Part shown: in pieces, positions 14,369 to 50,329 of the stretch | Position numbering within the stretch: position 1 is the first letter of the stretch | Layout of the letters: each line of letters opens with the position of its first letter | NCBI GenBank assembly: GCA_947503575.1 | Contig: CANNDZ010000003.1 | Span: 159,100 to 223,099 of the forward strand | Direction of reading: 5' to 3' | Source: an uncultured Kordiimonas sp. | GTDB taxonomy: Bacteria; Pseudomonadota; Alphaproteobacteria; Sphingomonadales; Kordiimonadaceae | DNA: 64,000 nt | Made by a program: the position numbers and the translations under genes | The notes under the pieces: generated by a model | What the model saw: only the letters and a program-made list of their open reading frames with translations | What the model was told of the DNA's origin: nothing | Database searches by the model: none

Positions 14369-14568
14369 AGAATTATTTATAAAATATAATTATTTCAGAT
14401 ACTTGCGGAATTTTACTGGCTTGTTCCATGTTTCTATCTGGGCGATACCCTCTCAAAACCGGTCAGATGACCAGCACCGGAGGCACCAATTCAAACGAAG
14501 GTTTACAGGAAAGCGCTTTGACATCGAAAGGCGGGTTGCTAGGTTTTCAATCGCTTGTCGGGCAAGGC

Positions 14569-14597
14569 AAAACAAACGTCACAGAAAACAAACGTCA
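14569..14597. repeat. 16-bp-period tandem duplication
   Basis: AAAACAAACGTCA at 14569 and 14585. Confidence 0.8.
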
Positions 14598-14612
14598 ACG
14601 TTAGGGGATATC

Positions 14613-17600
14613 ATGCAACGCGCTCTCACCTTTTTCCTATCTATATTTATGGTCAGTTCCAGCATTGGCGCCACAGACGGGTATTATCGTTCCCCTACCT
14701 TCCATGGAGACACGCTTGTCTTTGCTTCAGAAGGAGACCTTTGGCGCGCCCCTGCAGGCGGTGGCAAAGCCTACAGATTAACCACGCACCCTGAACTGGA
14801 ACGGGCCCCCAAACTTTCGCCAGATGGGCAATGGGTGGCATTTACCGCCAATTATGATGGGGCGATAGAAGCGTATGTGATGCCCATAGAGGGCGGTAGC
14901 CCAAAGCAGATAAGTTTTGACAGCAGCATTGTGTGGGTTAGGGGTTGGTCCCCTGATGGTCGCGTGCTGTACACAAGCGTAAACCGCAGCGGGGCAACCC
15001 CGCGCATTATGCGGCTTGTTAACCCACAGACACTGGAAACCGAGGAACTGCCGTTATCCGGCGCGACAAACGGCACCTTCACAGAAAATGGAGGCCAGTT
15101 TTATTTCAGCCGCTACGGCATGGAAATGAATAATGACAATGCCAAGCTGTACCGCGGGGGCGGCATGGCACAGCTTTGGCGCTTCAATACCCGCCGGCAA
15201 CGGGAAGCGGTTCGCCTGGCAGCCGATTTCGGTGCACCGCTGCGCCAGCCAATGTGGTGGAACGACAGAGTGTATTTTGTCTCGGACAAAAGCGGTAGTG
15301 GCAACATCTGGTCCGTGGATGAAGACGGCAACAGCCCCCGTCAACATACAAATCATGATGGTTGGGACGTGCGGGAAGCGTTTCTTCGTGACGGCAAAAT
15401 CATGTACCGCCTTGGGGCAGATATTCGGCTTTATGACACTGGTTCAGGCGCGGATAACGGCATCGAACTGGAACTTACCAGTGACCTTGATGCCAGCAGG
15501 GTCCGTTGGATTGAAAAGCCGCTGGACTATCTGACATCTGCACGGCTGGGTGGCGGTAAAGACCGTGTTGCCCTAACCGCACGGGGGAAAATTGCACTGG
15601 CCGGGCAAGGCCCGATGCGGCTTGTTGATTTCCGTCTGCCGGGCGGCGCGCGGGCCCGCAACGCCATTGCCAGTGCCGACATGGACTGGATTTATGCAAT
15701 TGTCGATAATGGCGAATTTGGTGAAATATGGCGCTATTCATCTAATGGCATAGGCGACGGGGAACAGCTGACCAGCGGCGCGAACACCAGACGCTGGCAG
15801 ATTTATGTATCCCCGGATGGTCAGTCTATTGTGCATAGTGACGGTGAGGAGCGCTTGTGGCTGCTGGATATCGAGTCCAAGGAAAGCACTCTCATAGAGC
15901 AAGTCAACAACGCACCTGGCAATGATGTCTTTGGTGGCGTCGCCTTCTCGAACGATGGCAGCTTGATTGCGTATCATCGAGGTGATCAACGTGGAAACTT
16001 CGGCATCTACTTGTACGACACAGCCACGGGAAGACGTGAAAAGGTTACCAGTTCAAAATACAATAGTTTCGCTCCCGCAGTCTCTAACGACGGCAAATGG
16101 CTTTATTTCCTGTCTGACCGCAACTTCAGGGCAACCCCGTCATCTCCGTGGGGTGACCGCAACATGGGGCCTCAGTTTGATAAACGCACAAAAATATATG
16201 CGTTAGCGCTTGTACCGGGCGAGAGGTTCCCCTTCCAGTCCAACGATGAGTTGGTCGAAAGCGCGGAAGATAAAGACGAGGATGACAAGGAAGAGGCGGA
16301 CCAGGACGAAGAAGATAAGCCCAAAGAGCCAAGCGTGATTTGGGATGGCCTGGCCAGCAGGCTGTATGAAGTACCCGTCAGCGCTGGCAACTACAGCGTT
16401 TTAGCGAGCGCCGATAGCTTCCTCTATATGCTCGACCGAAATGGTGGCGGGGCAGCCGCCATCAAAAGCCTCAAGATTGATAATAAAAAACCCAAGCTTG
16501 AAACCTTTGCGTCAGGTGTGCGTGATTTTGACCTGTCGGTGGACGGGAAAAACATCTTCTTTTCCAAGGGCAGCAGAAATTCAGGGCAGCTTTATATCGT
16601 AAAAGCCGGAGCAAAGGCCCCAAAGGATTTATCGGATGCTCAAATCCAAACCAAAAGCTGGAAGTTGGCAATTGATCCATCAAAGGAATGGCCGCAAATC
16701 TTTGTTGATGCCTGGCGTATGCACCGCGACTATTCCTTTGATCCCAAGATGCGCGGTCTTGATTGGACGGCCATAAGGGCTAAATACGAACCTTTGGTCA
16801 GCCGGGTTGGACACAGGGATGAACTGCATGACCTGATTGGCCAGATGACCAGCGAGCTTGGTATTCTGCATTCCCAAATTGGTGGTGGCGACCTGCCACA
16901 AGACCGTGAAGCCGGGACAGATGCATCGCTTGGTGCCGTCTTCGCGGCTCAGGGGGAAGGCATGCAGATCACGCACATCTATCAAACCGAGGATGACCTG
17001 CCGTCCTCGCGCGGGCCACTGGCCCTGCCCGGCGTAGACGCAGCGGTGGGTGATGTGTTGTTGTCCGTTAACGGGCAACCGGTTGCCGACCAGCGGGCGT
17101 TGCAACTCGCCCTGCGCGAACGGGCGGGTGAGCAAGTCCTGCTTGAGCTAAAGCGAGGCAGCGACGAACCGCATCATGTGATCGTAAAGCCGGTGCCCAT
17201 GCGCACGCACACCATGCTCCGCTACCATGACTGGGTGGAAAACAACGCTCAAAAAGTGCGGGCTGAACACGGGGATACTATTGGTTACCTGCACATCCGC
17301 GCTATGGGCGGCAATGACATTGCTGCCTTTGCCCGTGACTTTTACGAGCACTGGGATAAAGACGGCATCATCATTGATGTGCGCGGAAACCGGGGCGGCA
17401 ACATTGACAGCTGGCTGATCCAGACTTTCCTGCGCAAAGTCTGGGCCTTCTGGCATTTCAATGGCCGTGCCGTACCATACGGCAATATGCAACAAACATT
17501 CAGGGGTCATGTGACGGTTCTTATCGACCAGTCCACCTACTCTGACGGCGAAACCTTCGCCGCGGGCATGAAAGCGCTTGAGCTTGCCCCGCTTATTGGC

Positions 17601-17903
17601 ACCCGCACTGCGGGGGCTGGTATCTGGCTGTCTGATCGTAACCGACAGTCTGATGGCGGCATTGCCCGTATTGCAGAATCAGCGCAGTTTGGCATGGATG
17701 GCCGCTGGCTAATTGAAGGCCGGGGCGTTTTGCCAACGATCGAGGTAACCAACCCGCCATTTGCGGAATACAACGGCGAAGACCTGCAATTGCAAACAGC
17801 AATTGACTATTTGCTGGACAAAATTCGCAGCGAACCAATCCCACCACTTCAGGGGCAACCTCTGCCGCCGGTCGGGTCCTATGGCCGGGATATTGTCGAA
17901 TAA
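14613..17903 (+). CDS. Tricorn protease homolog (peptidase S41, PD40 propellers and PDZ)
   Basis: Signal peptide MQRALTFFL, LVFASEGDLW, PD40 repeats, acidic linker, QMTSELGILH, PDZ, DVRGNRGG, catalytic TYSDGE, GTRTAGAG; start refined to the ATG at 14613 (AGGGG RBS). Confidence 0.93.
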   Translation: MQRALTFFLSIFMVSSSIGATDGYYRSPTFHGDTLVFASEGDLWRAPAGGGKAYRLTTHPELERAPKLSPDGQWVAFTANYDGAIEAYVMPIEGGSPKQISFDSSIVWVRGWSPDGRVLYTSVNRSGATPRIMRLVNPQTLETEELPLSGATNGTFTENGGQFYFSRYGMEMNNDNAKLYRGGGMAQLWRFNTRRQREAVRLAADFGAPLRQPMWWNDRVYFVSDKSGSGNIWSVDEDGNSPRQHTNHDGWDVREAFLRDGKIMYRLGADIRLYDTGSGADNGIELELTSDLDASRVRWIEKPLDYLTSARLGGGKDRVALTARGKIALAGQGPMRLVDFRLPGGARARNAIASADMDWIYAIVDNGEFGEIWRYSSNGIGDGEQLTSGANTRRWQIYVSPDGQSIVHSDGEERLWLLDIESKESTLIEQVNNAPGNDVFGGVAFSNDGSLIAYHRGDQRGNFGIYLYDTATGRREKVTSSKYNSFAPAVSNDGKWLYFLSDRNFRATPSSPWGDRNMGPQFDKRTKIYALALVPGERFPFQSNDELVESAEDKDEDDKEEADQDEEDKPKEPSVIWDGLASRLYEVPVSAGNYSVLASADSFLYMLDRNGGGAAAIKSLKIDNKKPKLETFASGVRDFDLSVDGKNIFFSKGSRNSGQLYIVKAGAKAPKDLSDAQIQTKSWKLAIDPSKEWPQIFVDAWRMHRDYSFDPKMRGLDWTAIRAKYEPLVSRVGHRDELHDLIGQMTSELGILHSQIGGGDLPQDREAGTDASLGAVFAAQGEGMQITHIYQTEDDLPSSRGPLALPGVDAAVGDVLLSVNGQPVADQRALQLALRERAGEQVLLELKRGSDEPHHVIVKPVPMRTHTMLRYHDWVENNAQKVRAEHGDTIGYLHIRAMGGNDIAAFARDFYEHWDKDGIIIDVRGNRGGNIDSWLIQTFLRKVWAFWHFNGRAVPYGNMQQTFRGHVTVLIDQSTYSDGETFAAGMKALELAPLIGTRTAGAGIWLSDRNRQSDGGIARIAESAQFGMDGRWLIEGRGVLPTIEVTNPPFAEYNGEDLQLQTAIDYLLDKIRSEPIPPLQGQPLPPVGSYGRDIVE

Positions 17904-23603: not shown

Positions 23604-24494
23604 ATGAATTGGGATGACCTAAAAATATTCCTCGCGGTTGCCGAAGCGCCTTCCATGCGGGCGGCTGCCAAAGCGCTGCGTGTGAGCCACAGCACGGTGT
23701 CGCGGCGCATTGAAGCGCTGGAAGGAAAACTGGCTGCCCGGCTGTTTGACAGGCTGCCAGAAGGCTACCGCCTGACACCCGCAGGGCACGACTTATTGCC
23801 AATTTCCCAGGAGCTTAGGCAGAAAATTGATGCTTATAACCTGAGGGTTCTAGGGCGAGACACAGAACTGGAGGGCACCATTGTTCTGACAATGCCTGAT
23901 ACTGTTGGGATCGCGGTGATCATGCCTTACATCGCAGAATTTCAGGAAAAATTTCCCGATATAATTGTCCGTATTGACGACTCCGTCGAAATATATGATC
24001 TGAACCGCCGCGAAGCCGATATTGCTTTTCGGTTCACAAACGAGCCACCGGAACATTTGATTGGCAGGCGTATCGCGAACGCCCACCAGGCGATTTATGC
24101 CCACAAAGAATATGCAAGTGCGTTCAACTTGTCAGAACCGGATTGTAACGCCAAATGGATTGGCTGGGGGCAGCCGGAGGATAATCCAGCATGGATACAG
24201 TCGTCGCCCTACCCCCACCTGAAAATGGCAGGCCACTTCAATAATCCACTTATCCAAAAAGAAGCCGTGCGTCAAAAATTAGGTATTGGTCTATTGCCCT
24301 GCGCCCTTATGCAAAATGATGATGATTTTGTCTGTTTATCCGAGCGGCAACCATATTTGGATTTTTGGGTCCTGACCCACCGCGATCTGAAAGACACAGC
24401 AAGGCTACGCGTTTTTCGGGAATTCATTTTTGGCAAATCATCAGAGCTAAGTCGCATTTTTCGAGGTGATTTCGTAAAAAAAGGAGCCAAATAG
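23604..24494 (+). CDS. LysR family regulator
   Basis: MNWDDLKIFLAVAE, HSTVSRRIEALE, LFDRLPEGYRLTPAG. Confidence 0.93.
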   Translation: MNWDDLKIFLAVAEAPSMRAAAKALRVSHSTVSRRIEALEGKLAARLFDRLPEGYRLTPAGHDLLPISQELRQKIDAYNLRVLGRDTELEGTIVLTMPDTVGIAVIMPYIAEFQEKFPDIIVRIDDSVEIYDLNRREADIAFRFTNEPPEHLIGRRIANAHQAIYAHKEYASAFNLSEPDCNAKWIGWGQPEDNPAWIQSSPYPHLKMAGHFNNPLIQKEAVRQKLGIGLLPCALMQNDDDFVCLSERQPYLDFWVLTHRDLKDTARLRVFREFIFGKSSELSRIFRGDFVKKGAK

Positions 24495-24502
24495 CTCCTT
24501 TT
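24476..24502. terminator. Bidirectional terminator
   Basis: AAAAGGAGC-CAAATA-GCTCCTTTT. Confidence 0.75.
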
Positions 24503-24541: not shown

Positions 24542-27500
24542 TCAGGGCTGCCAAACGGGCAGTCTACCCGGTGTCCATGGGGCACCCATTGCCTCGAGAC
24601 GATCCTCAAAAGTAGCGAGGCGTTCATCAACCAGGCGCAGGCTGGCAAGAGCGTCGGCAAACTCTTCAGACGCAATTTCATAAGCTCCGGTGTGCACACC
24701 CGTTGGTGCAGACTGTGAATGCCAATGACCAAAAATAATCGATGAAACCCGCGCTGATATTGACATTGGCACCGGCTCATTGCGGGATGCAATTGTGCGG
24801 TCCCCTGACATTTTCACCCGCAATTCCCGCAGGGCATCATTGATGGCGACAAGGGCTTGCTTGTCCGCTTCGCCCGCCGTTTCCGTGCGCAACAATGCTG
24901 CTTGCAAATGGTCAATCCGGCGCTGCATCTCACCCATCAAACCGCTGGCACCGTCCACCGCCCGCCGGAGTTCGGCAGTCTTATTCTGGAACTCAAGCAA
25001 TCCTGCGCGGTCTGCCGTAATTTCTGGGCTATTTTCCAATGGCTTAACAACAAAACTCTGCGGCTCCGAAAGCTGGCTAAGTACACCGTCCTGACGTACC
25101 GCAAGGGATACTTGATAGTCTCCCGGCAATGCCATCGGCCCGAACGGCTCACTGGCCCACGGGGGCCGGTAACCGGATGCTGTTCGCAACTGGACCCTGT
25201 TGGGCGCATCAAGGCGCAGGTCCCATGCAACACGATGCAACCCTTTGGTTTTCGGCGCGGTCAAACGCCGAACAACGGCGCCATTGGCATCTGTCACCGT
25301 CAGCACCAGGTACGGCGCTTCCTCTGTGTCTTCCTCCCTCAAGGCGTCCCAGCTTGGGTACGGTGTATCACCGCCGTCTTTCTCAATTTCTTGCTCGGCT
25401 TTACGCCGCATTTGCGCCTTGGTGTTATAGCCTTCGTTCAGATAATAGGTGAAAACAGCACCAAACGGCGGGTTTTCGGTGGTGAAATACTCATCACCCT
25501 GGCTACCCTTCAGCTCATTACCGTATTGGAAGCTTTCCACATATTGCCATGTGTCTTTTACCGGGAACAAAGTAGCCCGCGCGCCGGACACCGCATCAGC
25601 AGATGACCTCAAAGGACTATAATCATCAAGGATATAGATGCCACGCCCGAAAGTACCCACCACCAGGTCGTTTTCGCGGCGCTGGATTTCAAGATCACGC
25701 ACCGCAATGGTCGGCAGACCAGTTTTCATCCGGTGCCAGCTTTCACCGCCATCCTGGGTGAAGAAAACGCCGTATTCCGTGCCAACAAACAACAGGTTCG
25801 GGTCTTCATGGTCCTCAACAATGGTATGAACGGTGCCGCGTTCCGGCAGGTCACCCGAAATCAATCGCCAACTGCGACCTTTGTTGATGGTTTTCATGAC
25901 ATAGGGTTTAAAGTCACCACGCTTGTGATTGTCTACCACCGCATAGGCGACATTTTCGTCATGCATGGATGCCTGAACATCTTCAATCAAAGACATATCC
26001 GGCACATCCCTGAAGCTATCCACCGTGCGCCAGTTTGCGCCGCCGTCTTCTGATACACTGATAAGCCCATCATCCGTCCCGACGTACAGCAGGTTGGGCA
26101 CTATGGCGCTTTCGCTGAAGCCAATAATACTGCCATACCGCGACGTACTGTCGTTTTTGGCGACGGCGTCTACACTCCAGACCCGACCCATAACCTCAAG
26201 CGTATTGCGGTCGATTTTGCGCGTCAGGTCCGGGCTGATAGCCTGCCAATTACTGCCCCTGTCGTCAGAGCGATACACTCGTTCTGCTGAGTAATAGATA
26301 CGGTCCGTATTATGCGGACTAATCAGCAAGGGGGTATTCCAGTTCCATTTGGGTGCGTTTTCGCCAGATGCCGGTTGCGGCGTGATGTAAATCCGCTCCC
26401 CGGTGCGCCTGTCATATCGCGCCAGCCCGCCATACTGGTACTGCGTGTATATGCGGTTTGGGTCGCTGGGGTCGATTTGCGGTTCGTAGCCGTCACCGCC
26501 AATCAGGATAGTCCAGTCCTCGTTGCCGATGCCGTGCATATCCTGCGTTCTGGACGGCGCACACAGTGAATTGTTATCCTGTGTGCCACCACACACATTA
26601 TAAAAAGGTTCGGCGTTATCAGGCTGTATACGATAAAACTGTGTGATCGGCAGGTTGCGTACATGCCGCCAAGTCGCACCCATGTCCCAGCTTTCATAAA
26701 TACCGCCATCACCGCCGATAAACAGATGATTGCTGTTGGCCGGGTCAATCCAAAGCGCATGGTCATCAACATGCCTGAACCGGTTCGACATCGGTGCCCA
26801 GGTCTTACCGCCGTCGTGGGACACATTGCTGAATGTATCCAGTGAATACACGCGGTTCGGGTTGTTGGGGTCCACTACCAGCTCATTGTAATACTGAGGG
26901 CTTGTGGTTATGTGGCCAGATTGTTTGCGCCAACTGATCCCAAAGTTATCAGAGCGGTACACACCGCGCTCGGCATCACTGGCTTCAACAATGGCATACA
27001 GCGTATCAGGTGCAGATGGTGCCATCGCCAAACCAATACGGCCCATGTCATCTTTGCTTGGCAAGCCTGATTTCACCTCGGCCCAGCTCTCGCCGCCGTC
27101 CGCTGTTCTGTGGATACCGCTACCCGGGCCACCGTTGATCAGCACCCATACATGGCGGCGACGCTGGTATGTGGACACAACGATATTGTCGAAATCGTTA
27201 GGGTCGACAACAAACTCGTTAACACCTGTGTGCTCATCAATTTCCAGAATTTGGGTCCAGGTTTCGCCGCCGTCTGTGGTTTTATAAAGTCCGCGGTCGC
27301 CGCCTTCGTTCCACAACGGGCCCTGCGCCGCCACCAAAACAGTATCGCTGTCCTCTGGGTTAATCCAAATCTGGCTGATGTGACCACTGTCCTTCAGGCC
27401 CATGTTGGTCCAGCTTTTACCGCCATCCACAGACTTATAGACACCGTCACCGTTCGCGACAGACCGTTGGGCGTTGTTTTCCCCCGTCCCAACCCAAACC

Positions 27501-27823
27501 GTGTTTTCGTTTGTGGGATCTATCTCTATTACCCCAATGGAGTAAGACCCTTCGTTTTCAAACAGGGCTTGCCAGGTCGTGCCATTATTGTCTGTTTTCC
27601 AAAGGTTCCCCGATGACGTCGCCACAAAATAGGAATGAGCCCCGCCTTCATGAAAGGCAAAGTCTGAGATACGGCCAGACGTAAGCGCTGGCCCGATGTT
27701 TCGGAACTTCAACCCCGCAAAAGGATTATCCGCAGCAATGGCGGGCGCAGAATAAGCCCCACCCAAAATAGTTAGTCCAAGAAGGCCAGCTTTAAGCGCC
27801 TGAAGGGCTGCGCGTCGTTTCAT
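24542..27823 (-). CDS. Secreted BNR/Asp-box (VPS10/sortilin-like) beta-propeller protein, paralog 3
   Basis: Many SxDxGxxW boxes, FRNIGPALTSGRI, QFY, GGTQDN, GTFGRGIY, Ig-like LHRVAWDLR and a helical C-terminus; start refined to MKRRAAL (27823). Confidence 0.88.
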   Translation of the reverse strand: MKRRAALQALKAGLLGLTILGGAYSAPAIAADNPFAGLKFRNIGPALTSGRISDFAFHEGGAHSYFVATSSGNLWKTDNNGTTWQALFENEGSYSIGVIEIDPTNENTVWVGTGENNAQRSVANGDGVYKSVDGGKSWTNMGLKDSGHISQIWINPEDSDTVLVAAQGPLWNEGGDRGLYKTTDGGETWTQILEIDEHTGVNEFVVDPNDFDNIVVSTYQRRRHVWVLINGGPGSGIHRTADGGESWAEVKSGLPSKDDMGRIGLAMAPSAPDTLYAIVEASDAERGVYRSDNFGISWRKQSGHITTSPQYYNELVVDPNNPNRVYSLDTFSNVSHDGGKTWAPMSNRFRHVDDHALWIDPANSNHLFIGGDGGIYESWDMGATWRHVRNLPITQFYRIQPDNAEPFYNVCGGTQDNNSLCAPSRTQDMHGIGNEDWTILIGGDGYEPQIDPSDPNRIYTQYQYGGLARYDRRTGERIYITPQPASGENAPKWNWNTPLLISPHNTDRIYYSAERVYRSDDRGSNWQAISPDLTRKIDRNTLEVMGRVWSVDAVAKNDSTSRYGSIIGFSESAIVPNLLYVGTDDGLISVSEDGGANWRTVDSFRDVPDMSLIEDVQASMHDENVAYAVVDNHKRGDFKPYVMKTINKGRSWRLISGDLPERGTVHTIVEDHEDPNLLFVGTEYGVFFTQDGGESWHRMKTGLPTIAVRDLEIQRRENDLVVGTFGRGIYILDDYSPLRSSADAVSGARATLFPVKDTWQYVESFQYGNELKGSQGDEYFTTENPPFGAVFTYYLNEGYNTKAQMRRKAEQEIEKDGGDTPYPSWDALREEDTEEAPYLVLTVTDANGAVVRRLTAPKTKGLHRVAWDLRLDAPNRVQLRTASGYRPPWASEPFGPMALPGDYQVSLAVRQDGVLSQLSEPQSFVVKPLENSPEITADRAGLLEFQNKTAELRRAVDGASGLMGEMQRRIDHLQAALLRTETAGEADKQALVAINDALRELRVKMSGDRTIASRNEPVPMSISARVSSIIFGHWHSQSAPTGVHTGAYEIASEEFADALASLRLVDERLATFEDRLEAMGAPWTPGRLPVWQP

Positions 27824-27833
27824 CGTTTCGTCC

Positions 27834-27869
27834 CCTGAATACGGTCCTGAATGTGGTCCTGAATATGGT
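27834..27869. repeat. Three 12-bp tandem repeats in the RBS region
   Basis: CCTGAATACGGT CCTGAATGTGGT CCTGAATATGGT. Confidence 0.85.
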
Positions 27870-27910
27870 AATGTATGCGACCGCACCCCGAAGGCTGCGG
27901 CCATGAAAGC

Positions 27911-30900
27911 TTATTGAACGGCTGTTTGATTAAAAAGGCCAAGCCCTGCTCTGCGGGCGGCAGCCTTCAGATCAGACAGGTCTCGGGTGATCAGGTTATT
28001 GACCTCCGAGACAGCGTCCGACACTGCAGTTTTAGCCTTGTCCACCTGCGCAAGCGCTGCTTGGTTCGGGGCGTCCCGCGTACTGGAAACATAGGCGTTA
28101 GCAAGCCCTAAAACAGCACCAACCTTGTCCGCAGAAAAGACAATTCCCCGCGTCCCACGGGGGTTGCGAAAACGCTTTTCAATATCTTCAAATGCGCTTT
28201 TCACATCACCAGCTTTCTTGGATAAATCCTTGAAAGCATCTGCATTCTCATCGGCTGTCGCCGACTTGATCAGAGTCATCAGGGTGTCGATATCACGGCG
28301 AGCCTCCATAACCTGTGTCAAGGCAGCCTGCACCTGCGCGTTCAAGCCAGACAAATCTGTCCGCATTTGATAATTGGCACGCTGCGCACTTATATCAAAC
28401 TTGGACCGCGGGTCGGCCAAAACCTGAACCTCACCGCTGTCACTGTTATCGCCGTACTCAACGGTAACTGTGTAACTGCCTGGCAAAATTTCAGTGCCTG
28501 CGGGCAACATGCCGTCCGCACGCGGTTTTGCAGGTGGTGCGGCTTGGACGCCGTCCTGCCGCATATTCCACATAATGCGGTTAATACCCTTATGGGCATT
28601 GGCTTTAAATGTCCTGATCGTGTCACCGTTGCTGTTTGCGACTTTGACCGTAACCTTATTGCCATCGCTTTTTTCATCTCCGTCATCATCTTGATCAGCG
28701 GAGGCCCGCATCGCCACCTGACGAGCCTTTTCCTTAGCCGAATCCGGGTGAGGCAAGTCATCGCCTGACGCCATAAAGGTGATCATCACGCCAAACGGTT
28801 CGTTATCAGCGCGGAATTCCCCGCTGCCAGGGAAGCGTGTGCCTGGCGTCTGGTTGGCGCTGTATTGCATACCATCCGCGAGCGATAGAATTTTGAGGTT
28901 CTGGGTGAAGCTTTCCTCGTTCAATCCCCTCAACGCACTATAGTCATCTATCACAAAGGCAGATCGCCCGTGCGTGCCCAGGACAAGATCATCTTCCCCT
29001 TCATGGATGGCCACATCCATCACCGAAACGGTTGGAACACCCTCCGTCCATTTAGTCCATTCCCGGCCTGCGTTGGAAGAAAAGAACAAACCAAACTCAG
29101 TACCCAGGAACAAAAGGTTTTCGTCCTTGTGGTCCTGGCGAATAGAAAGCGCGTAGCCGGAAACGTCATCCGTTACCAGGGGCCGCCAACGCTGGCCATA
29201 ATTTTCCATACGGTACACATAGGGTTTGTTGTCACCGCGCCGGTGATCATCGACCACAATGAAAGCAACTGATGGGTCATACCGGGATGGTTCAATCATC
29301 GGTATCCAGCCGCCTTTGGGGCCCCGGCGAATGTTATCTTCAACACTATCCCATGTTGCACCACCGTCGCGGGTCACATGCACCCGACCATCGTCTGTAC
29401 CAATCCAGATAACGTTGGCGTCAATGGGAGACGGGTTGATGGATGTGATGCTGGTGTAGTTTTCTGCCGCCGTTACATCAGGGGTGATACCGCCGCTTTC
29501 TTTGTACGTTTGGAATTCCGGGTTGTTGGTTGTCATATCCCCGCTGATGATCTGCCATGTCTGGCCTCGATCCGTCGACTTGTGCACAAACTGGCTACCA
29601 TAATAGATGGTGTTTACATCAAACGGACTTTGAGCAAATCCTGAGTTCCAATTGAACCGCAATTCCGTGCCATCATCTGGACCTTTGGGCCGCACCAGAC
29701 GGCGCTCGCCTGTGTCCAGATTCCAGTCCACCAAAAAACCGCCCTGGCTCATGGAGATGCCCTCGCGGCTGTTGTTTGGGTGTGGAATGGTGTCAAAACC
29801 ATCGCCAAACGCCACTTCCTGCCAGTGCAAATTACGAATACCGCCGTTTTCAAACACTTCGGCCGGGCCGCGCCACGCGCCGTTATCCTGCAACCCGCCA
29901 TAAATATTGTAGGGCACATCATTATCGACAGCGACATGATAGAATTGTGCAAGCGGCAGATTTTCAACAAACCGCCAGGTTTCACCGCCGTCTTGCGTTA
30001 TGCCGATGCCGCCATCGTTGCCATCAATCATGTGGCGCGGATCATTGGGATTGATCCACCAGGCGTGGTTATCAATGTGAATGCTGTTGGTTGGCGCACA
30101 GCAGGCAATTGCGTCTACGAAATCAAACGACTTGCCGCCATCAATCGACATCTTGACCCGTGACCCCACCCGGTAAACCCGATCAGGGTTCTGCGGATCG
30201 ACCGCAATATCGTTATAATAAAAGGGCCGATCATTGATGTCCGGGTCAGAATTAACCGTCGCCCATGTACGCCCCCCATCATCAGAGCGCGACAGCACGC
30301 TTTTTTCCGCCTCAATCAAGGCATACACGCGATTGGGGTTGCTGCGCGAAATCGCGAATGCAGACCGCCCCAGCTGCCCCTCTGGCAACCCATCTTCCTG
30401 GGTCATTTGTTCCCACGTTTCTCCCGCATCGTGAGAAACATAAAGGCCAGACCCTTCACCGCCTGATTTGAAGAAATACGGCCAGCGCCTGAACTGCCAC
30501 ATAGAGGCAAAGAGTTTGTTTGGGTTAGAGGGGTCCATCTGAACATCGGTGGCGCCTGTGCTTTCGTTTACATACAAAAGCCGGTTCCATGTCTTGCCAC
30601 CGTCAGTGGTTTTGTAAAGACCGCGTTCTTCGCTATCACCCCACAATTTGCCCAAAACTGCAGCATAGGCCACATCCGGGTTGGTTGGGTCCAGCGCAAT
30701 CCGATTGATCCGTTCAGAGTTTTCAAGGCCGACTTTTGCCCATGTCTTACCGCCATCGAGCGATTTGAACATGCCACAACCGATTGACGTTGAATTCCGT
30801 GTATTGCCTTCACCTGTGCCAACCCAGATAACATCCGGGTTTGCCTGATTGATGGCAACAGCGCCAACAGAGGCACACTCCTGATCATCAAACACAGGGG

Positions 30901-31138
30901 TCCAGTTCAAACCACCATTGCTGGAAATCCAAACGCCACCTGTTGCGGCACCAACCACAATGTGATTGGGGTCCGATGCAACGGCGTCGATGGCTGCAAC
31001 GCGCCCGCTCATGGCGGCAGGGCCGACCACGCGGGCTTTCATGCCTGCGAGCAGGTCGCTATCAATATCAGCATGAACTGCTGCCGAGCCTAGCATCAAC
31101 GCAGCCGCACAGGTCATTGTTTTAAATATGTTTTTCAC
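27911..31138 (-). CDS. Secreted BNR/Asp-box (VPS10-like) protein, paralog 2
   Basis: ARVVGPAAMSGRV, Asp-boxes, QFY, GGLQDN, GTHGRS, INRIMWNMR; GTG at 31138 with GGAGAGG RBS. Confidence 0.88.
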   Translation of the reverse strand: MKNIFKTMTCAAALMLGSAAVHADIDSDLLAGMKARVVGPAAMSGRVAAIDAVASDPNHIVVGAATGGVWISSNGGLNWTPVFDDQECASVGAVAINQANPDVIWVGTGEGNTRNSTSIGCGMFKSLDGGKTWAKVGLENSERINRIALDPTNPDVAYAAVLGKLWGDSEERGLYKTTDGGKTWNRLLYVNESTGATDVQMDPSNPNKLFASMWQFRRWPYFFKSGGEGSGLYVSHDAGETWEQMTQEDGLPEGQLGRSAFAISRSNPNRVYALIEAEKSVLSRSDDGGRTWATVNSDPDINDRPFYYNDIAVDPQNPDRVYRVGSRVKMSIDGGKSFDFVDAIACCAPTNSIHIDNHAWWINPNDPRHMIDGNDGGIGITQDGGETWRFVENLPLAQFYHVAVDNDVPYNIYGGLQDNGAWRGPAEVFENGGIRNLHWQEVAFGDGFDTIPHPNNSREGISMSQGGFLVDWNLDTGERRLVRPKGPDDGTELRFNWNSGFAQSPFDVNTIYYGSQFVHKSTDRGQTWQIISGDMTTNNPEFQTYKESGGITPDVTAAENYTSITSINPSPIDANVIWIGTDDGRVHVTRDGGATWDSVEDNIRRGPKGGWIPMIEPSRYDPSVAFIVVDDHRRGDNKPYVYRMENYGQRWRPLVTDDVSGYALSIRQDHKDENLLFLGTEFGLFFSSNAGREWTKWTEGVPTVSVMDVAIHEGEDDLVLGTHGRSAFVIDDYSALRGLNEESFTQNLKILSLADGMQYSANQTPGTRFPGSGEFRADNEPFGVMITFMASGDDLPHPDSAKEKARQVAMRASADQDDDGDEKSDGNKVTVKVANSNGDTIRTFKANAHKGINRIMWNMRQDGVQAAPPAKPRADGMLPAGTEILPGSYTVTVEYGDNSDSGEVQVLADPRSKFDISAQRANYQMRTDLSGLNAQVQAALTQVMEARRDIDTLMTLIKSATADENADAFKDLSKKAGDVKSAFEDIEKRFRNPRGTRGIVFSADKVGAVLGLANAYVSSTRDAPNQAALAQVDKAKTAVSDAVSEVNNLITRDLSDLKAAARRAGLGLFNQTAVQ

Positions 31139-31153
31139 TACCCTCTCCCATCG

Positions 31154-31183
31154 AAAAAAGAAGGCGCCATAAGCGCCTTCTTT
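31154..31183 (-). terminator. Intrinsic terminator between VPS10 paralogs 1 and 2
   Basis: Minus strand AAAGAAGGCGC-TTATG-GCGCCTTCTTTTTT. Confidence 0.8.
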
Positions 31184-31190
31184 ATTGAGT

Positions 31191-34100
31191 TTATTCTGTG
31201 TCGGTGAAGTTTGGCGTCGCAACCGCACTACGACCACTGTCCGCAAACGCCTGATTGAAGGCCGCAATCTGATCGGAAACAACCGCATCCCTTGCCGCCA
31301 TGGCATCCCGGAACACTGCCGCAACATCGTTGAACCGCTCTTTTGTGCCTGCATTAACAGGTGGAATACCGCCATTCAGGTTGCCATACAGGAACTGCAA
31401 GTCAGAATGCAGCTTATCGGGCCAATTCAAAACATCCTGGAAGAATTCCCGTTCTGTGTTTATCAGACCTTTCTCCCAGTCCTCGATAGCCTTAACGGCA
31501 GCATCACCTGCTGCCTTCAGCGCTTCATGGTCCTTATTGGCTTCTGAAACCGTTTTCGCCTGAAGCTTGGCCTGCCGCATGGCGATAACCGACTGCTGCA
31601 ACTCGCCCAGCATATCAAATGCCTGGCTCACCATTGTGGTCTGCTCAGCAATAGCGGTGGCAGCAATATCAAGCCGTGGGTCCCACTGCACGTCAAAGCT
31701 TTGTTCTGACGTTGTGTCGCCGACGGTTAATCTTGCGGTATAGGTGCCCGGAGCTAACACAAAACCATCAACTTTGCGGTCGCTGCCTCCTGCAACGGAC
31801 CACAGGCCTTTGATTGGTTTCAGGGCCTCTGTTTGCAAGTCCCATTGCGCACGGTTAAGGCCGGTTTTCATTGGCAGGCTATAGGCACTGCCTGAGCCGC
31901 CGCCGTCTTCACCCTTTTTCTCGTCCGACTTGAGCGTGCGAATAACATCGCCGTCCGAATTCAGGATCTCAACAGAAATACCGTCCTCCGGCACATCTGA
32001 CAGGCTGTAATACAATGAAGCCCCTGATGGCGGGTTCGGGCTTGATGGACCACCATTGCGCGAGCCAGCGGTGGTCACGTGATAGGCAGTTGACGGGGCA
32101 AACAAAGTGGCGCCCTCATCAACATCGTCCTGCATCTGACGCAGCGGCGAAATATCGTCCAAAATCCAGAAGCCACGCCCCTGAGTGGACAACAGCAGAT
32201 CTGTGCCATGAACCTTGATGTCCGTTACCGGCAAGTGCGGCAAATTCATTTGCATTGGCTGCCAGTTGTCACCGTCATCAAACGATACATACATGCCGGT
32301 TTCGGTACCGGCGTATAGCATTCCTTTGCGTACTGTATCTTCCCGCACGACGCGCACGAAGTCACCTTCGGGAATACCGCCTGCAATTTGCGTCCAACGC
32401 CGACCATAGTTCGTTGTTTTGTAGATCAGCGGCGTATGATCGTTTTCCTTGTAACGGGTGACCGCGACGTAAGCGGTTGCCGGATCATGCGGCGATACGT
32501 CTATAGCATTGACGAGAGCCATGCCGATGCCGCGCGGCGTGATATTTTGCCAATTTGCGCCGTCATCTCTTGTTACATGCACAAGGCCATCGTCGCTGCC
32601 TGCGTAGAAGGTGCCAGCTTCATGCATGCTTTCTGCGACATAGGTGATGGTATTATAGTTTTCCGATACCTCATTGGTGATCGGGCCACCCATCGGGCCT
32701 TGCATGGCCTCGTCGTTGCGTGTCAGATCAGGGCTGACCTCTGTCCAGCTTACGCCCCGGTCGGTTGATTTCAGCAACTTGTTACCGGCATGGTAAATCG
32801 CAGATGGGTCATGCTGCGAGACCAGAATGGGCGCATTCCAGTTAAAGCGATACTTACGGTTCTTTGGCGGATTGCCAAAGGACATTTCAGGGTATGCACT
32901 GACATTGCGCTGGGTTTCGGTTTCAAAATCATATTCGTCAATCTGGCCGAGGTAGCACCCTGAATACGCGTAGCGCGGATTATCGCGGTCAAGCCCAACA
33001 AAGCCGCTTTCACAACCGCCAACAGCATGAAAGTCTTCCAAGCCAATAGAGCCGTCAGGTGCCCGGCTCAGGAGGGCAACAGTGCTGTTATCCTGCTGAC
33101 CACCGTAAAGACGGTAAGCAAAGTTATTGTCTGCATTCAGACGATAAATCTGGGTTGTTGGTTGATTATAGATCGTCGACCAGCTTTTGGCCCCGTCAAG
33201 CGACACAGTACCCCCGCCATCGTTGGCATTGATCATGATGTCCGTATTATCAGGATTGATCCACAAATCGTGAGTGTCGCCGTGCGGCACGCTGATTTGG
33301 TTGAAGCTTTTGCCCCCATCAATTGACTTCATAAACGGTGCATTCAGGACATAAACCGTGTTTTCATCCTTCGGGTCGGCAAAAACATGCATGTAATACC
33401 AGGAACGCGCATGCAGGCGGCGGTCACCGTTTACATGGGTCCAGTTTTCGCCACCATCTGTGGATTTATACAGCCCGCCTTTTTCTTTGGCTTCGACAAT
33501 CGCCCACACCAGGTCAGATTTGGCGGGCGATGCGACCACGCCAATTTTGCCCACTTGTTCGGGCAAGCCTTTGCCTGTTTTGGTCCAGGTTTCGCCACCA
33601 TCAACAGATTTCCAAATGCCGGACCCGGGCCCGCCAGAGCGAATGAACCATGGCTCTCGGTCTGTGTCCCACATCGCAGCATATAGAATGCGCGGATTGC
33701 TGGCATCCACTGTCAGGTCAACGGCACCCGATGTTTCATCGACAAACAGGGTTTTGTTCCAGGTTTCGCCGCCATCGGTGGATTTGTAGACACCACGGTC
33801 TTCCGTTGGTGCCCAGGGCGAACCTTGCACCGCTACCCAGATAACGTCGGCGTTTGTCGGGTGAATATGAACCGTGGATATCTGGCGGCTGTTCGGCAGC
33901 CCCATATTTTTCCAGGTTTTGCCCGCGTCTTTTGATATGTAAACGCCGTCCCCGTGCGAGGATGCGACACCCCGGAAAGGTGACTCGCCCATACCGACCA
34001 CAACAACATTCGGGTCAGACGGCGCAACAGCAATCGCACCGACAGAACCGGTTTTAAAGAATTTGTCAGAAACATTAGTCCAGTCGCCGCCGGCGTTGGT

Positions 34101-34346
34101 GGTTTTCCAAACACCACCGCCCGTGCCGCCCATGTAATACACGCGCGCATCGCTGGTTGTGCCTGCAACGGCAGTTACCCGGCCACCCCGCCAAGGGCCA
34201 ATGCTGCGATATTCCATGCCATCCAAATAGTTTGGTGGCACATAATAGTCATCTTCATCCGTCTGTGCGAAAGCAGGCAGTGCAAAAGCGCTGCTCATCA
34301 GGGCCGTACCCGCAAGCAAGGCCGTAAGTTTACTTTTTAGTGTCAT
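31191..34346 (-). CDS. Secreted BNR/Asp-box (VPS10-like) protein, paralog 1
   Basis: Signal peptide ending AFAQ, YRSIGPWRGGRV, Asp-boxes, QIY, GGQQDN, STQGRGFW, LNRAQWDLQ. Confidence 0.9.
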   Translation of the reverse strand: MTLKSKLTALLAGTALMSSAFALPAFAQTDEDDYYVPPNYLDGMEYRSIGPWRGGRVTAVAGTTSDARVYYMGGTGGGVWKTTNAGGDWTNVSDKFFKTGSVGAIAVAPSDPNVVVVGMGESPFRGVASSHGDGVYISKDAGKTWKNMGLPNSRQISTVHIHPTNADVIWVAVQGSPWAPTEDRGVYKSTDGGETWNKTLFVDETSGAVDLTVDASNPRILYAAMWDTDREPWFIRSGGPGSGIWKSVDGGETWTKTGKGLPEQVGKIGVVASPAKSDLVWAIVEAKEKGGLYKSTDGGENWTHVNGDRRLHARSWYYMHVFADPKDENTVYVLNAPFMKSIDGGKSFNQISVPHGDTHDLWINPDNTDIMINANDGGGTVSLDGAKSWSTIYNQPTTQIYRLNADNNFAYRLYGGQQDNSTVALLSRAPDGSIGLEDFHAVGGCESGFVGLDRDNPRYAYSGCYLGQIDEYDFETETQRNVSAYPEMSFGNPPKNRKYRFNWNAPILVSQHDPSAIYHAGNKLLKSTDRGVSWTEVSPDLTRNDEAMQGPMGGPITNEVSENYNTITYVAESMHEAGTFYAGSDDGLVHVTRDDGANWQNITPRGIGMALVNAIDVSPHDPATAYVAVTRYKENDHTPLIYKTTNYGRRWTQIAGGIPEGDFVRVVREDTVRKGMLYAGTETGMYVSFDDGDNWQPMQMNLPHLPVTDIKVHGTDLLLSTQGRGFWILDDISPLRQMQDDVDEGATLFAPSTAYHVTTAGSRNGGPSSPNPPSGASLYYSLSDVPEDGISVEILNSDGDVIRTLKSDEKKGEDGGGSGSAYSLPMKTGLNRAQWDLQTEALKPIKGLWSVAGGSDRKVDGFVLAPGTYTARLTVGDTTSEQSFDVQWDPRLDIAATAIAEQTTMVSQAFDMLGELQQSVIAMRQAKLQAKTVSEANKDHEALKAAGDAAVKAIEDWEKGLINTEREFFQDVLNWPDKLHSDLQFLYGNLNGGIPPVNAGTKERFNDVAAVFRDAMAARDAVVSDQIAAFNQAFADSGRSAVATPNFTDTE

Positions 34347-34420
34347 GTGTAGCTCCCCTTTATAAGCTGACCGGTCCGTGTCCCCAGATCTGGTCGACTT
34401 TCATCAAATCTTGTCGCTGA

Positions 34421-34996
34421 CTATTCAGCGGGCTGTCTTAGTCCGTCCGCCCGCAGTTGGGCGGCCTCTCGCTTTTTTTGTTTGTTTTTGCGCTTTTTTA
34501 TGCGCGGCATGAAAAACAGGTACAAACCGGTTGCCCATAGAATAAACAGAACAATCCCGGCGGGTAAAAATACAAAAAGCTTAGTGGCATCACTGAAAAA
34601 ACTGCCGTCATGAAGGCTTTCTATGAAGTCAGACCGCCGATACGCAACTTGCAGTATCGCACCCGTTTTTGTGTCAACCTGAACTTCGTAACTGTTTGGG
34701 CCAACAAACTTCACAATCCCTTTGCTGGGCTTGAAATCAACACGGTCCAGGTCGCCCCAAACCCAGGACTTTGCCTCTGGTACAGTCGTCGCCGCCCGGA
34801 ACAACTCTTCAAGTGTTAAAACAGGTATGTCAGTGGTGGACCCAGCAACGGTTTCAGGCTGAATCCAGGAAATTTCTTTTTTGAGCATCAAAAGGATGCC
34901 CGCACCGATCATGAGCAGAAGTGGCAGCGCGATAATGATCGAGCCCCAATGATGGATTGTCCGCAGTAATATCTGTGGCTTCAAGCCTGCCCTCAC
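34421..34996 (-). CDS. PepSY-associated TM helix protein
   Basis: RTIHHWGS, two TM segments flanking a PepSY-like loop, FIESLHDGSFF. Confidence 0.8.
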   Translation of the reverse strand: MRAGLKPQILLRTIHHWGSIIIALPLLLMIGAGILLMLKKEISWIQPETVAGSTTDIPVLTLEELFRAATTVPEAKSWVWGDLDRVDFKPSKGIVKFVGPNSYEVQVDTKTGAILQVAYRRSDFIESLHDGSFFSDATKLFVFLPAGIVLFILWATGLYLFFMPRIKKRKNKQKKREAAQLRADGLRQPAE

Positions 34997-35013: not shown

Positions 35014-37017
35014 CTAAAAGATAGCCCGAAGCCCAATTATTATGGTCCGGCCGGGGTCCGGCAGACCTAACTGAGGCTCAACAAACGTGTCCGTCAAATT
35101 CTCAAGCTGAGCAAATAGCTCTACGTTTGACCCACTCGACACTGCACGAAGCAAATGCCTTGCTGACAAATCTAAAGTCATTGCAGGCGATAAGTCCAGA
35201 AACTCACCCGTTATGTCTTCTGATTTAGCCGCGCCTCTGTAAACCACCGATAGCCCAAAGGTGGTCTCAGCCCCTAATTGATACTGCGCGTCCATGCGCG
35301 CAAGCCAATTGGGACGATCTGAAAGGTAGAGACGATGAATTGAATTAGCAACAAAATCTGACTTTGCCCTGGTCCGGTTCCAAGTTGCATTTCCAGTCAC
35401 TTTCAGGCTTTCCGACATTCGCCAGTCCAGCTTTGTTTCAATACCGTAACTTCTGGACCCTGCCAGATTAACACGTTGACGCAGCATATCGCCGCCCATT
35501 TGCACAGACACCTGGTCCAGTGTGTTCTCTGACTCCACAAAAAAGGGCGTGACTTCAAGCGAGCCAGAGCGCCACGAATAGGCACCTGAAACTTCAAACA
35601 ACCAATTGTTTTCGGGAACAAGGTCGGGGTTCAAAACAAACCGGCCTAGTGCCTCGCCAAACAACTCTCGCATTGTTGGAAGGCGGACTTTCTTTCCCAT
35701 GCCCACCCGAAATCGCCAACGAGATGAAGGCATCATATTCAAATTCACGGACGCATTTACCCCGTCGAACGAACCAGCACTTTCCCGGCCTGCCGTTCTT
35801 TTTGGATCAAACACATCGTATCCAACACCAAAATGCAGTGATGCGACATCACTCAATGTCTGCTGGTGGTCAATCGCCAGGCTACCCAGAAAATGCGTGA
35901 AAACTTCTGTTTCATCATCTGGATCGCCGAGCATAACGCGCGTTTCTTCATGGCGTGCCCATTGCCCCGAGGCACTCACGATTGTCGTGTTTTCTTTCCC
36001 GGTTCGCGTAAGCGCCAACTTTACACCCGTAGTATCGTTGTCATCAAACTGGCGAGATTGCAGGACATTATAAGTAGCGTCAGTGAACGACTGAATTTCC
36101 TGGCGGTAATCCTGACTCCAGATGACTGTATTCAGGTCCAGGTTGGCGCTAACGAGCACATCAAGGTGCCCGGCAAGCAAAAGATGGTCCGTATCGGGGA
36201 AACGCCAAAAACGTGAGTTTGCAAGGTTAACGCGCTGCCCCTGTTCAGGCGCAATGCCAAACTGAGCCGCAGAATATAGCGCAGAGAAACCGAAACTACC
36301 CTGCCCGATGCGCCACTTACCGGTACCGGCAATATTGTTTGTTTGTCGGTCAGTATTGGTGATCAGATCATTCTGGTTAACAGAAAACAGTGAACCGGAC
36401 CGAGGTGAAATGCGCCCATCAAGGCTGGAATGGGCGACTGCGACTGTTCCATCAAACCCGTTTTGGGACACAGATGCGCTGGCTTCTGCATTACGCAAAC
36501 CACCATTACCAGCCGATAGACGAACGATCGATGGGGTTTCTGTCCCGGAGCTCAGGCTTATAACGCCGCCGGCAGTATTGGCACCAAACTGCATAGCCGT
36601 AGGCCCGACAAAGGTTTCAAGTTTTGAAATACCAAGGGCGGGAAACAAACTGAGGTCAAATCGGTTGTCCCACGGTACATTGACCGGAATGTCGTTCCAA
36701 ACCAATGCCAATTGTCGTTCACCGCTGCCCCGGATTGATGCAAGAACTTCCCCGCGTGAATTTGTGCGAATATTGATAGCCGGAACGGAAACGAGGATGT
36801 CTGCAAGGCTTTGGGGGCTTACAGGGGCAAATTCCTGCTGCGTAAGCGCAAATCCGGACCCTGGCTTCTCAAAAACTTCATCTTGCGCAGCCGTGACTTC
36901 GACCGTTTCAAGGTCATCTTTCCAAGCATCTGTGCCAGCAGCCACAGATGCAGGTGTTGGGGCGCACAAATACGCCACGCAAACAGACCCCATGATTTGC
37001 AGCGACGCGCGCGCCAT
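35014..37017 (-). CDS. TonB-dependent receptor (small, 667 aa)
   Basis: TonB box LETVEVTA, plug IRGSG, GANTAGGVI, alternating beta strands, ENLTD and terminal Phe. Confidence 0.88.
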   Translation of the reverse strand: MARASLQIMGSVCVAYLCAPTPASVAAGTDAWKDDLETVEVTAAQDEVFEKPGSGFALTQQEFAPVSPQSLADILVSVPAINIRTNSRGEVLASIRGSGERQLALVWNDIPVNVPWDNRFDLSLFPALGISKLETFVGPTAMQFGANTAGGVISLSSGTETPSIVRLSAGNGGLRNAEASASVSQNGFDGTVAVAHSSLDGRISPRSGSLFSVNQNDLITNTDRQTNNIAGTGKWRIGQGSFGFSALYSAAQFGIAPEQGQRVNLANSRFWRFPDTDHLLLAGHLDVLVSANLDLNTVIWSQDYRQEIQSFTDATYNVLQSRQFDDNDTTGVKLALTRTGKENTTIVSASGQWARHEETRVMLGDPDDETEVFTHFLGSLAIDHQQTLSDVASLHFGVGYDVFDPKRTAGRESAGSFDGVNASVNLNMMPSSRWRFRVGMGKKVRLPTMRELFGEALGRFVLNPDLVPENNWLFEVSGAYSWRSGSLEVTPFFVESENTLDQVSVQMGGDMLRQRVNLAGSRSYGIETKLDWRMSESLKVTGNATWNRTRAKSDFVANSIHRLYLSDRPNWLARMDAQYQLGAETTFGLSVVYRGAAKSEDITGEFLDLSPAMTLDLSARHLLRAVSSGSNVELFAQLENLTDTFVEPQLGLPDPGRTIIIGLRAIF

Positions 37018-44291: not shown

Positions 44292-44329
44292 GCGACGCCT
44301 TTTCTATTTATTTAGGATATATTAGGCGG

Positions 44330-46858: not shown

Positions 46859-47307
46859 GTTTAAAGCATCTCCTGAGTAATGTTTTTTGGTCCAAAGCCG
46901 TGAAACAAAAGACTTCGGTGGCGAATATGCCAAATTGGACCACCTTTGTTTGGCGACCATAATTATTTGAATTGAAAGCTTCTCTAACAAACCGGTTGAT
47001 AACCTGTACATGGAAAATCTTGTTTTTACGAGGCATTGCAACAACAATGGCCATCAAGTGTTGCAAATAATCTATAGAATTCAAATTACTTGCCGCATCG
47101 CTTTCCCTGCCGACAAATCCATCGAACATAGTAAGCGTCCAGGTATTTCTTGAGCAGTACCGCTTATTCGTTTGCCTAAAGACCAGTTAATAGCCCGCGA
47201 TAATTTTAGGCTAGTAGGCACTGTAGGGATGGTAGTATCAGGGCAGCGCTCAGCGCCTCGTGACAAATGGAGCTTCAGACGAGTAATCGATAGTATCGAA
47301 CTGAGAC

Positions 47308-47339
47308 AAAAAATGGGAGAGCCTGCGAAGCTCTCCCAT
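47308..47339 (-). terminator. Intrinsic terminator after the upstream TBDR
   Basis: Minus strand ATGGGAGAGC-TTCGCAG-GCTCTCCCAT-TTTTT. Confidence 0.85.
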
Positions 47340-47371
47340 CCAATAGTTGGGCCGCTTACTAAGCTAGCAGC

Positions 47372-50080: not shown

Positions 50081-50329
50081 CCATAGCCTCCCCTTCTTGT
50101 GTAGCTTTTGATGCAGGACAGCTAAATGCGATCTATCGCCCTGCCTCGTCTTTTCATGACGCAATTCATCAAGCCCGACAGATACACCCGAAACGCTGCT
50201 CAGCTACTGATCATCCGAAGCAGGGCGCGGTTCCTAATAATACCGCACTCAAACACTTCTTCTGGCCACCGCGTGAAAGTTAGAGCCAAGATCATTTTTC
50301 AACTTATGCTTTCCAAAATGCACTTTCGT

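Follow-up and report, generated by a model that had tools for sequence, protein, structure and literature searches.

The window analysed here is a stretch of 64,000 nucleotides from an uncultured Kordiimonas sp. (GenBank assembly GCA_947503575.1, contig CANNDZ010000003.1, positions 159,100 to 223,099 of the forward strand), whose minus strand carries three tandem genes, here called A, B and C, that encode large secreted paralogs. In each of the three proteins, two seven-bladed Asp-box propellers, homologous to the GH74 xyloglucanases, are arranged as a clamshell and followed by a family-specific beta-sandwich and helical bundle. The family is homologous to GH74 without being a canonical GH74 enzyme, both catalytic aspartates being missing, and peptides or polypeptides are its most likely ligands. 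Our tentative reading, plausible if short of probable, is that A, B and C form a periplasmic module for binding or processing peptides, with specificities divided among the three. The three genes, in window coordinates, are as follows.

31191..34346, minus strand: paralog A, 1051 aa, start as first listed (open reading frame and translation)
27911..31138, minus strand: paralog B, 1075 aa, GTG start, same architecture as A (Pfam, BLASTP)
24542..27823, minus strand: paralog C, 1093 aa, ATG start, same architecture as A (open reading frame and translation)

The start of B was corrected to the GTG at 31138, which is preceded by the ribosome-binding site (RBS) GGGAGAGGG, and that of C to the ATG at 27823; the C-terminal motif of C is APWTPGRLP. 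BLASTP gave pairwise identities of 34%, 33% and 32% among A, B and C over ~1000 residues (E 6e-175 to 2e-143), a resemblance far beyond chance. With open reading frames at these coordinates, 32-34% identity and one common architecture, the picture of three tandem, deeply diverged large secreted paralogs drawn in an initial annotation made from the sequence alone is borne out. The leaders of all three are of the Sec type, with Ala-x-Ala sites and no lipobox. The signal peptide of A comprises residues 1-27 (34266-34346), that of B ends in VHA/D and that of C reads MKRRAAL...AIA/AD. The latter had been taken initially as a twin-Arg-like leader, a suggestion that did not survive comparison with the C orthologs, most of which lack the RR (MIRSASK, MKKRTTI, MKNRFG and others); Tat export, unlikely on this ground, was set aside for C. 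The three proteins are probably exported by Sec rather than Tat, and are soluble and most likely periplasmic.

The AlphaFold2 model of A (pLDDT 88.4, pTM 0.86) divides the protein into three parts.

Residues ~45-735 (32142-34214), minus strand: two seven-bladed Asp-box propellers of A (AlphaFold2 model)
Residues 754-888 (31683-32087), minus strand: beta-sandwich of A (AlphaFold2 model)
Residues 896-1036 (31239-31661), minus strand: helical bundle of A, four long helices (AlphaFold2 model)

Eight strict Asp-boxes were found in each of A, B and C, and all three proteins match the Pfam families BNR and Sortilin-Vps10 (E 1.2e-30 for A with the latter). The Sortilin-Vps10 matches (PF15902) score 100-113 bits against a cut-off of 33, above the gathering score, and span single blades only (profile positions 3-115 of 446), repeated 2-5 times. 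The model of A was compared by Foldseek with the Protein Data Bank (PDB), as the initial annotation had proposed for sortilin and GH74. The top 25 matches were all GH74 (E 1e-25 to 1e-19), with template modelling (TM) scores of 0.52-0.59 normalised on the target and 15-16% identity, while sortilin (5znn) gave TM scores of 0.13/0.20. The ten-bladed VPS10 fold was ruled out by these low sortilin scores and by the two seven-bladed units in the model, and the “VPS10” label therefore reflects common Asp-box blades and not a ten-bladed fold. Thus, of the VPS10/BNR propellers described at the outset, the Asp-box propellers stand and the VPS10 type gives way to a GH74-type pair. Sortilin and the family have Asp-box blades in common; however, the family lacks the ten-bladed propeller as well as the cysteine-rich 10CC module, its C-terminal part being a beta-sandwich with helices, and A, B and C hold 2-5 Cys per protein. 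Sortilin binds peptide C-termini, which resembles the function that we propose for the family.

Other profile matches were weaker. The NCBIfam F510_1955 family glycosylhydrolase is matched at 135-147 bits over 3-4 stretches, below its curated cut-off of 175, Pfam gives a weak FlgD-type Ig domain match, and the GH33 sialidases, six-bladed propellers with an Arg triad and a Tyr/Glu nucleophile, give a marginal profile match (E 0.002). An N-terminal R-x-I-G-P motif and several invariant Arg, Glu and Tyr occur in the family. The C-terminal module was also modelled separately (pLDDT 88, pTM 0.87). When searched against the PDB with Foldseek, it returned only generic Ig-like matches (E ~1e-3) and no meaningful relative; with the helical tail included, it is the least conserved part of the protein. 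The WDL/WNM Ig-like domain and the long helical C-terminus of the initial annotation can be recognised in the model, the tryptophan (W835) lying inside the predicted beta-sandwich and the four long helices after it. In the models (pTM 0.86-0.87), the tail packs into a compact bundle within the molecule, which speaks mildly against an extended coiled coil.

The relation to GH74 was explored with a family profile of 150 representatives and a GH74 profile of four sequences from PDB alignments, including the D465N mutant (PDB 2ebs); residues are numbered as in A for the family and as in OXG-RCBH for GH74. The two profiles aligned with a probability of 99.7-99.9% in hhalign and were collinear (Q41-688 versus T1-760). 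Like the GH74 xyloglucanases, OXG-RCBH among them (PDB 1sqj, 2cn2, 5fkq, 6mgj, 6p2m), the family has two tandem, collinear seven-bladed Asp-box propellers and the local motifs PHG...IDP/INP, with GxQDN in the family where GH74 has GIEEN. The catalytic residues, however, are not shared. D35 of OXG-RCBH aligns with high confidence to T75 of A, a column occupied in the 150 sequences by T (94), A (34), V (12), S (7) and G (1) and never by D or E. D465 falls in an unaligned insert that is missing from the family, and a global-mode alignment puts it on a variable column with D in 60/150. With the equivalents of both residues missing in 150 sequences, a canonical GH74 enzyme was ruled out. This agrees with the earlier remark that proteins of this kind are annotated as glycosyl hydrolases without evidence: the name is a generic label among the homologs, and the check for the GH74 Asp pair found it missing. 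The family also differs from GH74 in its low identity, in its set of invariant residues, in the added C-terminal module of ~300 residues and in showing no polysaccharide-utilisation context.

In place of the GH74 pair, ~30 other polar residues are invariant in the 150 sequences, which come from four phyla. R47, R56, E121, R184, R230, E285, Y317 and Y318 come first in the sequence, followed by H355-x-D357-x-H359, D376, Q399, Y401, D406 and Y411 and, last, by Q418-D419-N420, W503, D585, D586, E682, T721 and R724. D376, D419 and D586 are present in 150/150 sequences and D585 in 149/150. The Q(F/I)Y...GGxQDN motif noticed at the outset belongs to this set through Q399, Y401, Q418, D419 and N420. 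By predicted secondary structure, the invariant residues map to the B-C and D-A loops and to the inter-propeller hinge, on the face opposite the Asp-boxes, which is also the face where the GH74 catalytic residues sit. These Arg, Asp, Glu, His, Tyr, Gln and Asn residues, taken together as a ring, would form a working site in the inter-propeller cleft.

The family is large, with at least 6332 clusters at 50% identity (E <= 1e-30). A-type orthologs that are 41-58% identical occur in Acidobacteriota, Gemmatimonadota, Bacteroidota and Gamma- and Alphaproteobacteria, and C-type orthologs that are 63-67% identical in many alpha- and gammaproteobacteria. A fourth paralog, D, is encoded elsewhere in the same genome. 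A tree of 121 sequences places A, B and C (with D) in three clades that branch deeply and are well supported (99% for the B-type clade that holds B), and a recent duplication on the spot therefore does not account for the tandem. A, B and C appear instead to represent three ancient subfamilies, each kept in other lineages. Of the conserved positions, 103 are identical in all three clades and 30 differ from clade to clade, and the earlier claim of divided specificities fits both the ancient clades and this partition of common and clade-specific positions.

The distribution of the family is patchy. It was found in 15/26 relatives, with 0-10 copies each, and in just 5/197 evenly drawn genomes of the phylum. 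Tandem divergent paralogs recur, with A-B at locus L007, A-C at locus L008 and pairs in Flavobacteriaceae. D, at its own locus (L009, G000:C1:752000-768000), is flanked by genes for a glutathione S-transferase, a class-C beta-lactamase-family serine hydrolase and a patatin-like lipase, and it is the sole family copy in many Kordiimonas genomes. Databases label family members “glycosyl hydrolase”, “VPS10 domain protein” or “photosystem II assembly factor-like”. A full-text literature search found no characterised member, and a BNR protein from randomly barcoded transposon sequencing (RB-TnSeq) considered as a candidate was rejected, as it belongs to a different, Ycf48-like family.

Evidence on the ligand came from domain fusions, surveyed in the 150 best family representatives. 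A PDZ insert or a fused peptidase was present in 7/150. The PDZ domain is inserted after residue 287, beside the invariant E285, in three clusters, and the fused peptidases are Peptidase_C1, S51, S10 and M14, in one cluster each; fusion to a glycoside hydrolase (GH) or carbohydrate-binding module (CBM) domain was found in none of the 150. All fused forms retain the family invariants, and four of the architectures recur in independent assemblies. Individual proteins with extra domains are P0337, P0372, P0365, P0378, P0351, P0364, P0375 and P0381 (C1 plus lectin-like, S51, S10, M14, PDZ, TPR or an extra PQQ-type propeller), and P0254 is an apparent tandem duplication of the whole double propeller. 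Tricorn, S9 prolyl oligopeptidase and DPP-IV combine propellers with PDZ or peptidase domains, as some family members do, and Tricorn and the propeller-gated peptidases have the periplasmic peptide scavenging setting that we also propose for the family. However, the resemblance in sequence and fold does not go beyond a generic propeller, and A, B and C lack a recognised peptidase domain.

A second line of evidence is the gene neighborhood, where a small PepSY protein and a TonB-dependent receptor (TBDR) are encoded directly upstream of A.

34421..34996, minus strand: small inner-membrane PepSY protein, 191 aa, a PepSY-like domain between two transmembrane helices, 74 nt upstream of A
35014..37017, minus strand: TBDR, 667 aa, Pfam Plug and TonB_dep_Rec_b-barrel, 17 nt upstream of the PepSY gene

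The PepSY protein matches Pfam PepSY_TM (PF03929, E 1.7e-12, 48.3 bits against a cut-off of 28.8), and its two hydrophobic helices flank a periplasmic domain of ~100 aa with a PepSY-like signature. H15 and H129 are invariant in this PepSY-2TM protein and lie on both membrane sides, which would be compatible with bis-His haem ligation. The protein looks like a half-size FoxB-type PepSY_TM unit. It shares with the FoxB/CrpH reductases the PepSY_TM match, a PepSY domain flanked by transmembrane helices and conserved His near both faces; it differs from them in having one PepSY domain and two transmembrane helices instead of two and four, and in adjoining exported hydrolases and the propeller family, not siderophore receptors alone. 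Those PepSY_TM proteins that have been characterised reduce ferrisiderophores or copper in a haem-dependent manner (PMC13038864).

The gene for the 667-aa TBDR, which has only weak subfamily matches in NCBIfam, probably heads a TBDR-PepSY-A unit, the arrangement of which is kept in genomes G010 and G012 and at locus L096. The whole TBDR-PepSY-A-B-C block is retained in the closest species; elsewhere in the order, PepSY-A-C or A-B is found. The PepSY gene adjoins a family gene in 6/6 Kordiimonadales genomes that hold it, and in an unrelated genome (L095) a 44%-identical PepSY ortholog adjoins a family member that bears a PDZ domain. In a reciprocal scan, a family gene of the D, A or B type was the immediate neighbor of the small PepSY protein in 23/80 metagenomic loci; chance adjacency was estimated at well under one locus, because there are at most ~10 family genes per genome among several thousand. 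The remaining PepSY neighbors (loci L096-L175) were enriched in exported amidohydrolases (14/98), TBDRs (7), BaxI-like proteins (6), gamma-glutamyltranspeptidases (GGT; 3) and S9/DPP-IV peptidases (3). No PepSY gene was found near D at L009, yet D-type genes are the commonest PepSY neighbors in metagenomes. Starting from 80 A-type loci, no operon partner was conserved across phyla: the top neighbor cluster, a generic short-chain dehydrogenase/reductase, occurred in 10/80 loci, and the 137 immediate neighbors were spread over 152 Pfam families, none of them represented more than 4 times. TBDR, Tricorn and PepSY genes were present at 0-1 of the 80 loci, and a general link of A-type genes to any of them was ruled out.

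The idea of peptide or glycan receptors or hydrolases put forward in the initial annotation is thus narrowed, its peptide side being indirectly favored by the PDZ and peptidase fusions and by a PepSY partner common to exported amide hydrolases, and an ordinary GH74 glycosidase falling away. In the mechanism that we propose, the family would act in periplasmic oligopeptide or protein scavenging, and would either capture peptides, possibly by their termini, for peptidases or itself be a hydrolase. A subset would work with the small two-helix PepSY membrane protein. A, B and C would have the same core site with different peripheral residues, giving the same chemistry with different specificities. 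A more far-reaching version, which we hold to be speculative and on balance unlikely, is that the family represents a kind of periplasmic enzyme not recognised before, which processes peptides, may be a new type of peptidase and has a GH74-like double propeller as its scaffold. It would use H-x-D-x-H, D376, QDN and DDG and be coupled to a half-size, possibly haem-binding PepSY protein that also serves amidohydrolases, GGT and S9 peptidases.

Several points weigh against a peptide function. It is deduced from sequence, model and context, and the clustering of the invariant residues from predicted loop positions. The nearest fold is that of a glycosidase, and the conserved site, rich in Trp, Tyr, Asp and Glu, would also suit carbohydrate. 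Fusions occur in ~5% of the representatives, and a fusion indicates association, not identity of function. Peptidases are not enriched beside the 80 cross-phylum A-type genes (2-3/137 immediate neighbors), no other partner is conserved at these loci, and the known PepSY_TM proteins are metal reductases and not peptidase partners (PMC13038864). GH74 ancestry and the acidic, aromatic site keep a relocated-catalyst glycosidase as a rival. The family would then be a divergent, glycan-active sister of GH74 acting on a ubiquitous periplasmic glycan, with its catalytic carboxylates moved to other loops (D376 on blade 7 with D419 or D586). GH74 provides the best structural and profile matches, and the invariance of D376, D419 and D586, together with the near invariance of D585, fits such a catalyst, as D376 and D585/D586 lie in B-C loops like the GH74 catalytic Asp and D419 at the start of the second propeller. 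An alternative hhalign register even puts D35 and D465 on E182/D183 and ~D586, the aromatics W362, W503, Y317, Y318, Y401 and Y411 are conserved, and the host phyla are rich in polysaccharide degraders. We nevertheless consider this unlikely, while granting it a real chance, as the canonical catalytic pair is missing, no SusC/SusD or other carbohydrate-active enzyme context was seen in the 80 loci, many Bacteroidota included, and the PepSY partner otherwise adjoins amide hydrolases. In addition, peptidases and PDZ account for all fused domains among the 150 representatives for which an enzymatic or substrate-binding role is recognised.

The conserved TBDR-PepSY-A order, the reductase activity of known PepSY_TM proteins (PMC13038864), the invariant H15 and H129 of the PepSY-2TM protein and the invariant H355-x-D357-x-H359 motif of the family would all suit metal- or redox-linked periplasmic proteins served by a PepSY-2TM haem reductase, either handling metallophores with the adjacent TBDR or being metalloenzymes (H-x-D-x-H) that need reduced metal. 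This is improbable as most family members have no PepSY or TBDR neighbor and the PepSY-2TM protein is otherwise partnered with hydrolases that have no obvious requirement for electrons; no Fur-box-like sequence was recognised by eye upstream of the TBDR, where no formal motif scan was made. The recurrence of tandem arrays of divergent paralogs (L007, L008, Flavobacteriaceae) would also be expected of non-catalytic scaffolds or chaperone-like receptors that hetero-oligomerise through their C-terminal helices, an association that the initial annotation had suggested. We find this very doubtful, as ~30 invariant polar residues and 41-67% cross-phylum identity are typical of enzymes, the helical tail is less conserved than any other part and folds back into a compact bundle in the model, and terminator-like hairpins separate the genes. 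A peptide-binding or peptide-processing module is the reading of A, B and C that we retain.

The transcription signals found around the three genes are listed below.

31151..31183, minus strand: intrinsic-terminator-like hairpin between A and B, 11-bp stem and T run
27879..27902, minus strand: GC-rich hairpin just after B, without a T run here (loci L005 and L006 have one)
27831..27868, minus strand: threefold direct repeat of a 12-nt unit (ATTCAGGACC core) that overlaps the RBS of C
24474..24502, minus strand: intrinsic terminator after C (AAAAGGAGC-loop-GCTCCTTTTTTT), common to a convergent LysR gene

In the orthologous loci L005 and L006, where the 12-nt unit is present as a single copy, compensatory changes preserve the hairpins after A and B. 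With hairpins between the genes, A, B and C are at most loosely coupled; A is probably co-transcribed with the TBDR and the PepSY protein, B and C lying behind terminator-like hairpins. A short hairpin with a conserved TGGGACA-like loop was observed between the PepSY gene and A (34347-34420) in three species and may be a regulatory element. A sigma-54 promoter in the same interval was considered and dropped, as its spacing does not fit.

Further from A, B and C, the window encodes the following proteins.

14403-17903: Tricorn-like S41 protease, 1166 aa, with PD40 propeller, Tricorn_C1, PDZ_Tricorn and Peptidase_S41
44330-47047: TBDR, 905 aa
47372-50164: TBDR, 930 aa

The Tricorn and TBDRs that had been pointed out initially are therefore present nearby (one Tricorn-like protease, three TBDRs), although they are not general partners of the family, given the 0-1/80 loci. 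The 905- and 930-aa TBDRs are adjoined on the same strand by a gene for a TPR-sulfotransferase fusion protein of 671 aa (window 42276-50164). Genes for a wax-ester synthase/diacylglycerol acyltransferase and for a PhaC polyhydroxyalkanoate synthase (6154-7851 and 11306-12988) lie within 5 kb, a pair that suggests two storage-lipid routes. A minus-strand open reading frame of >2130 aa at 57597-63998 runs off the end of the window.

The family to which A, B and C belong is huge, strongly conserved across Acidobacteriota, Gemmatimonadota, Bacteroidota and some Pseudomonadota, and routinely mislabelled. What is new here is that its GH74 catalytic pair is missing, that fusions link it to peptides and that it has a recurrent PepSY membrane partner. 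The small PepSY-2TM protein is thereby flagged as a common partner of several exported hydrolase families, and what was an annotation dead end becomes a testable hypothesis on periplasmic peptide processing by sediment and soil heterotrophs.

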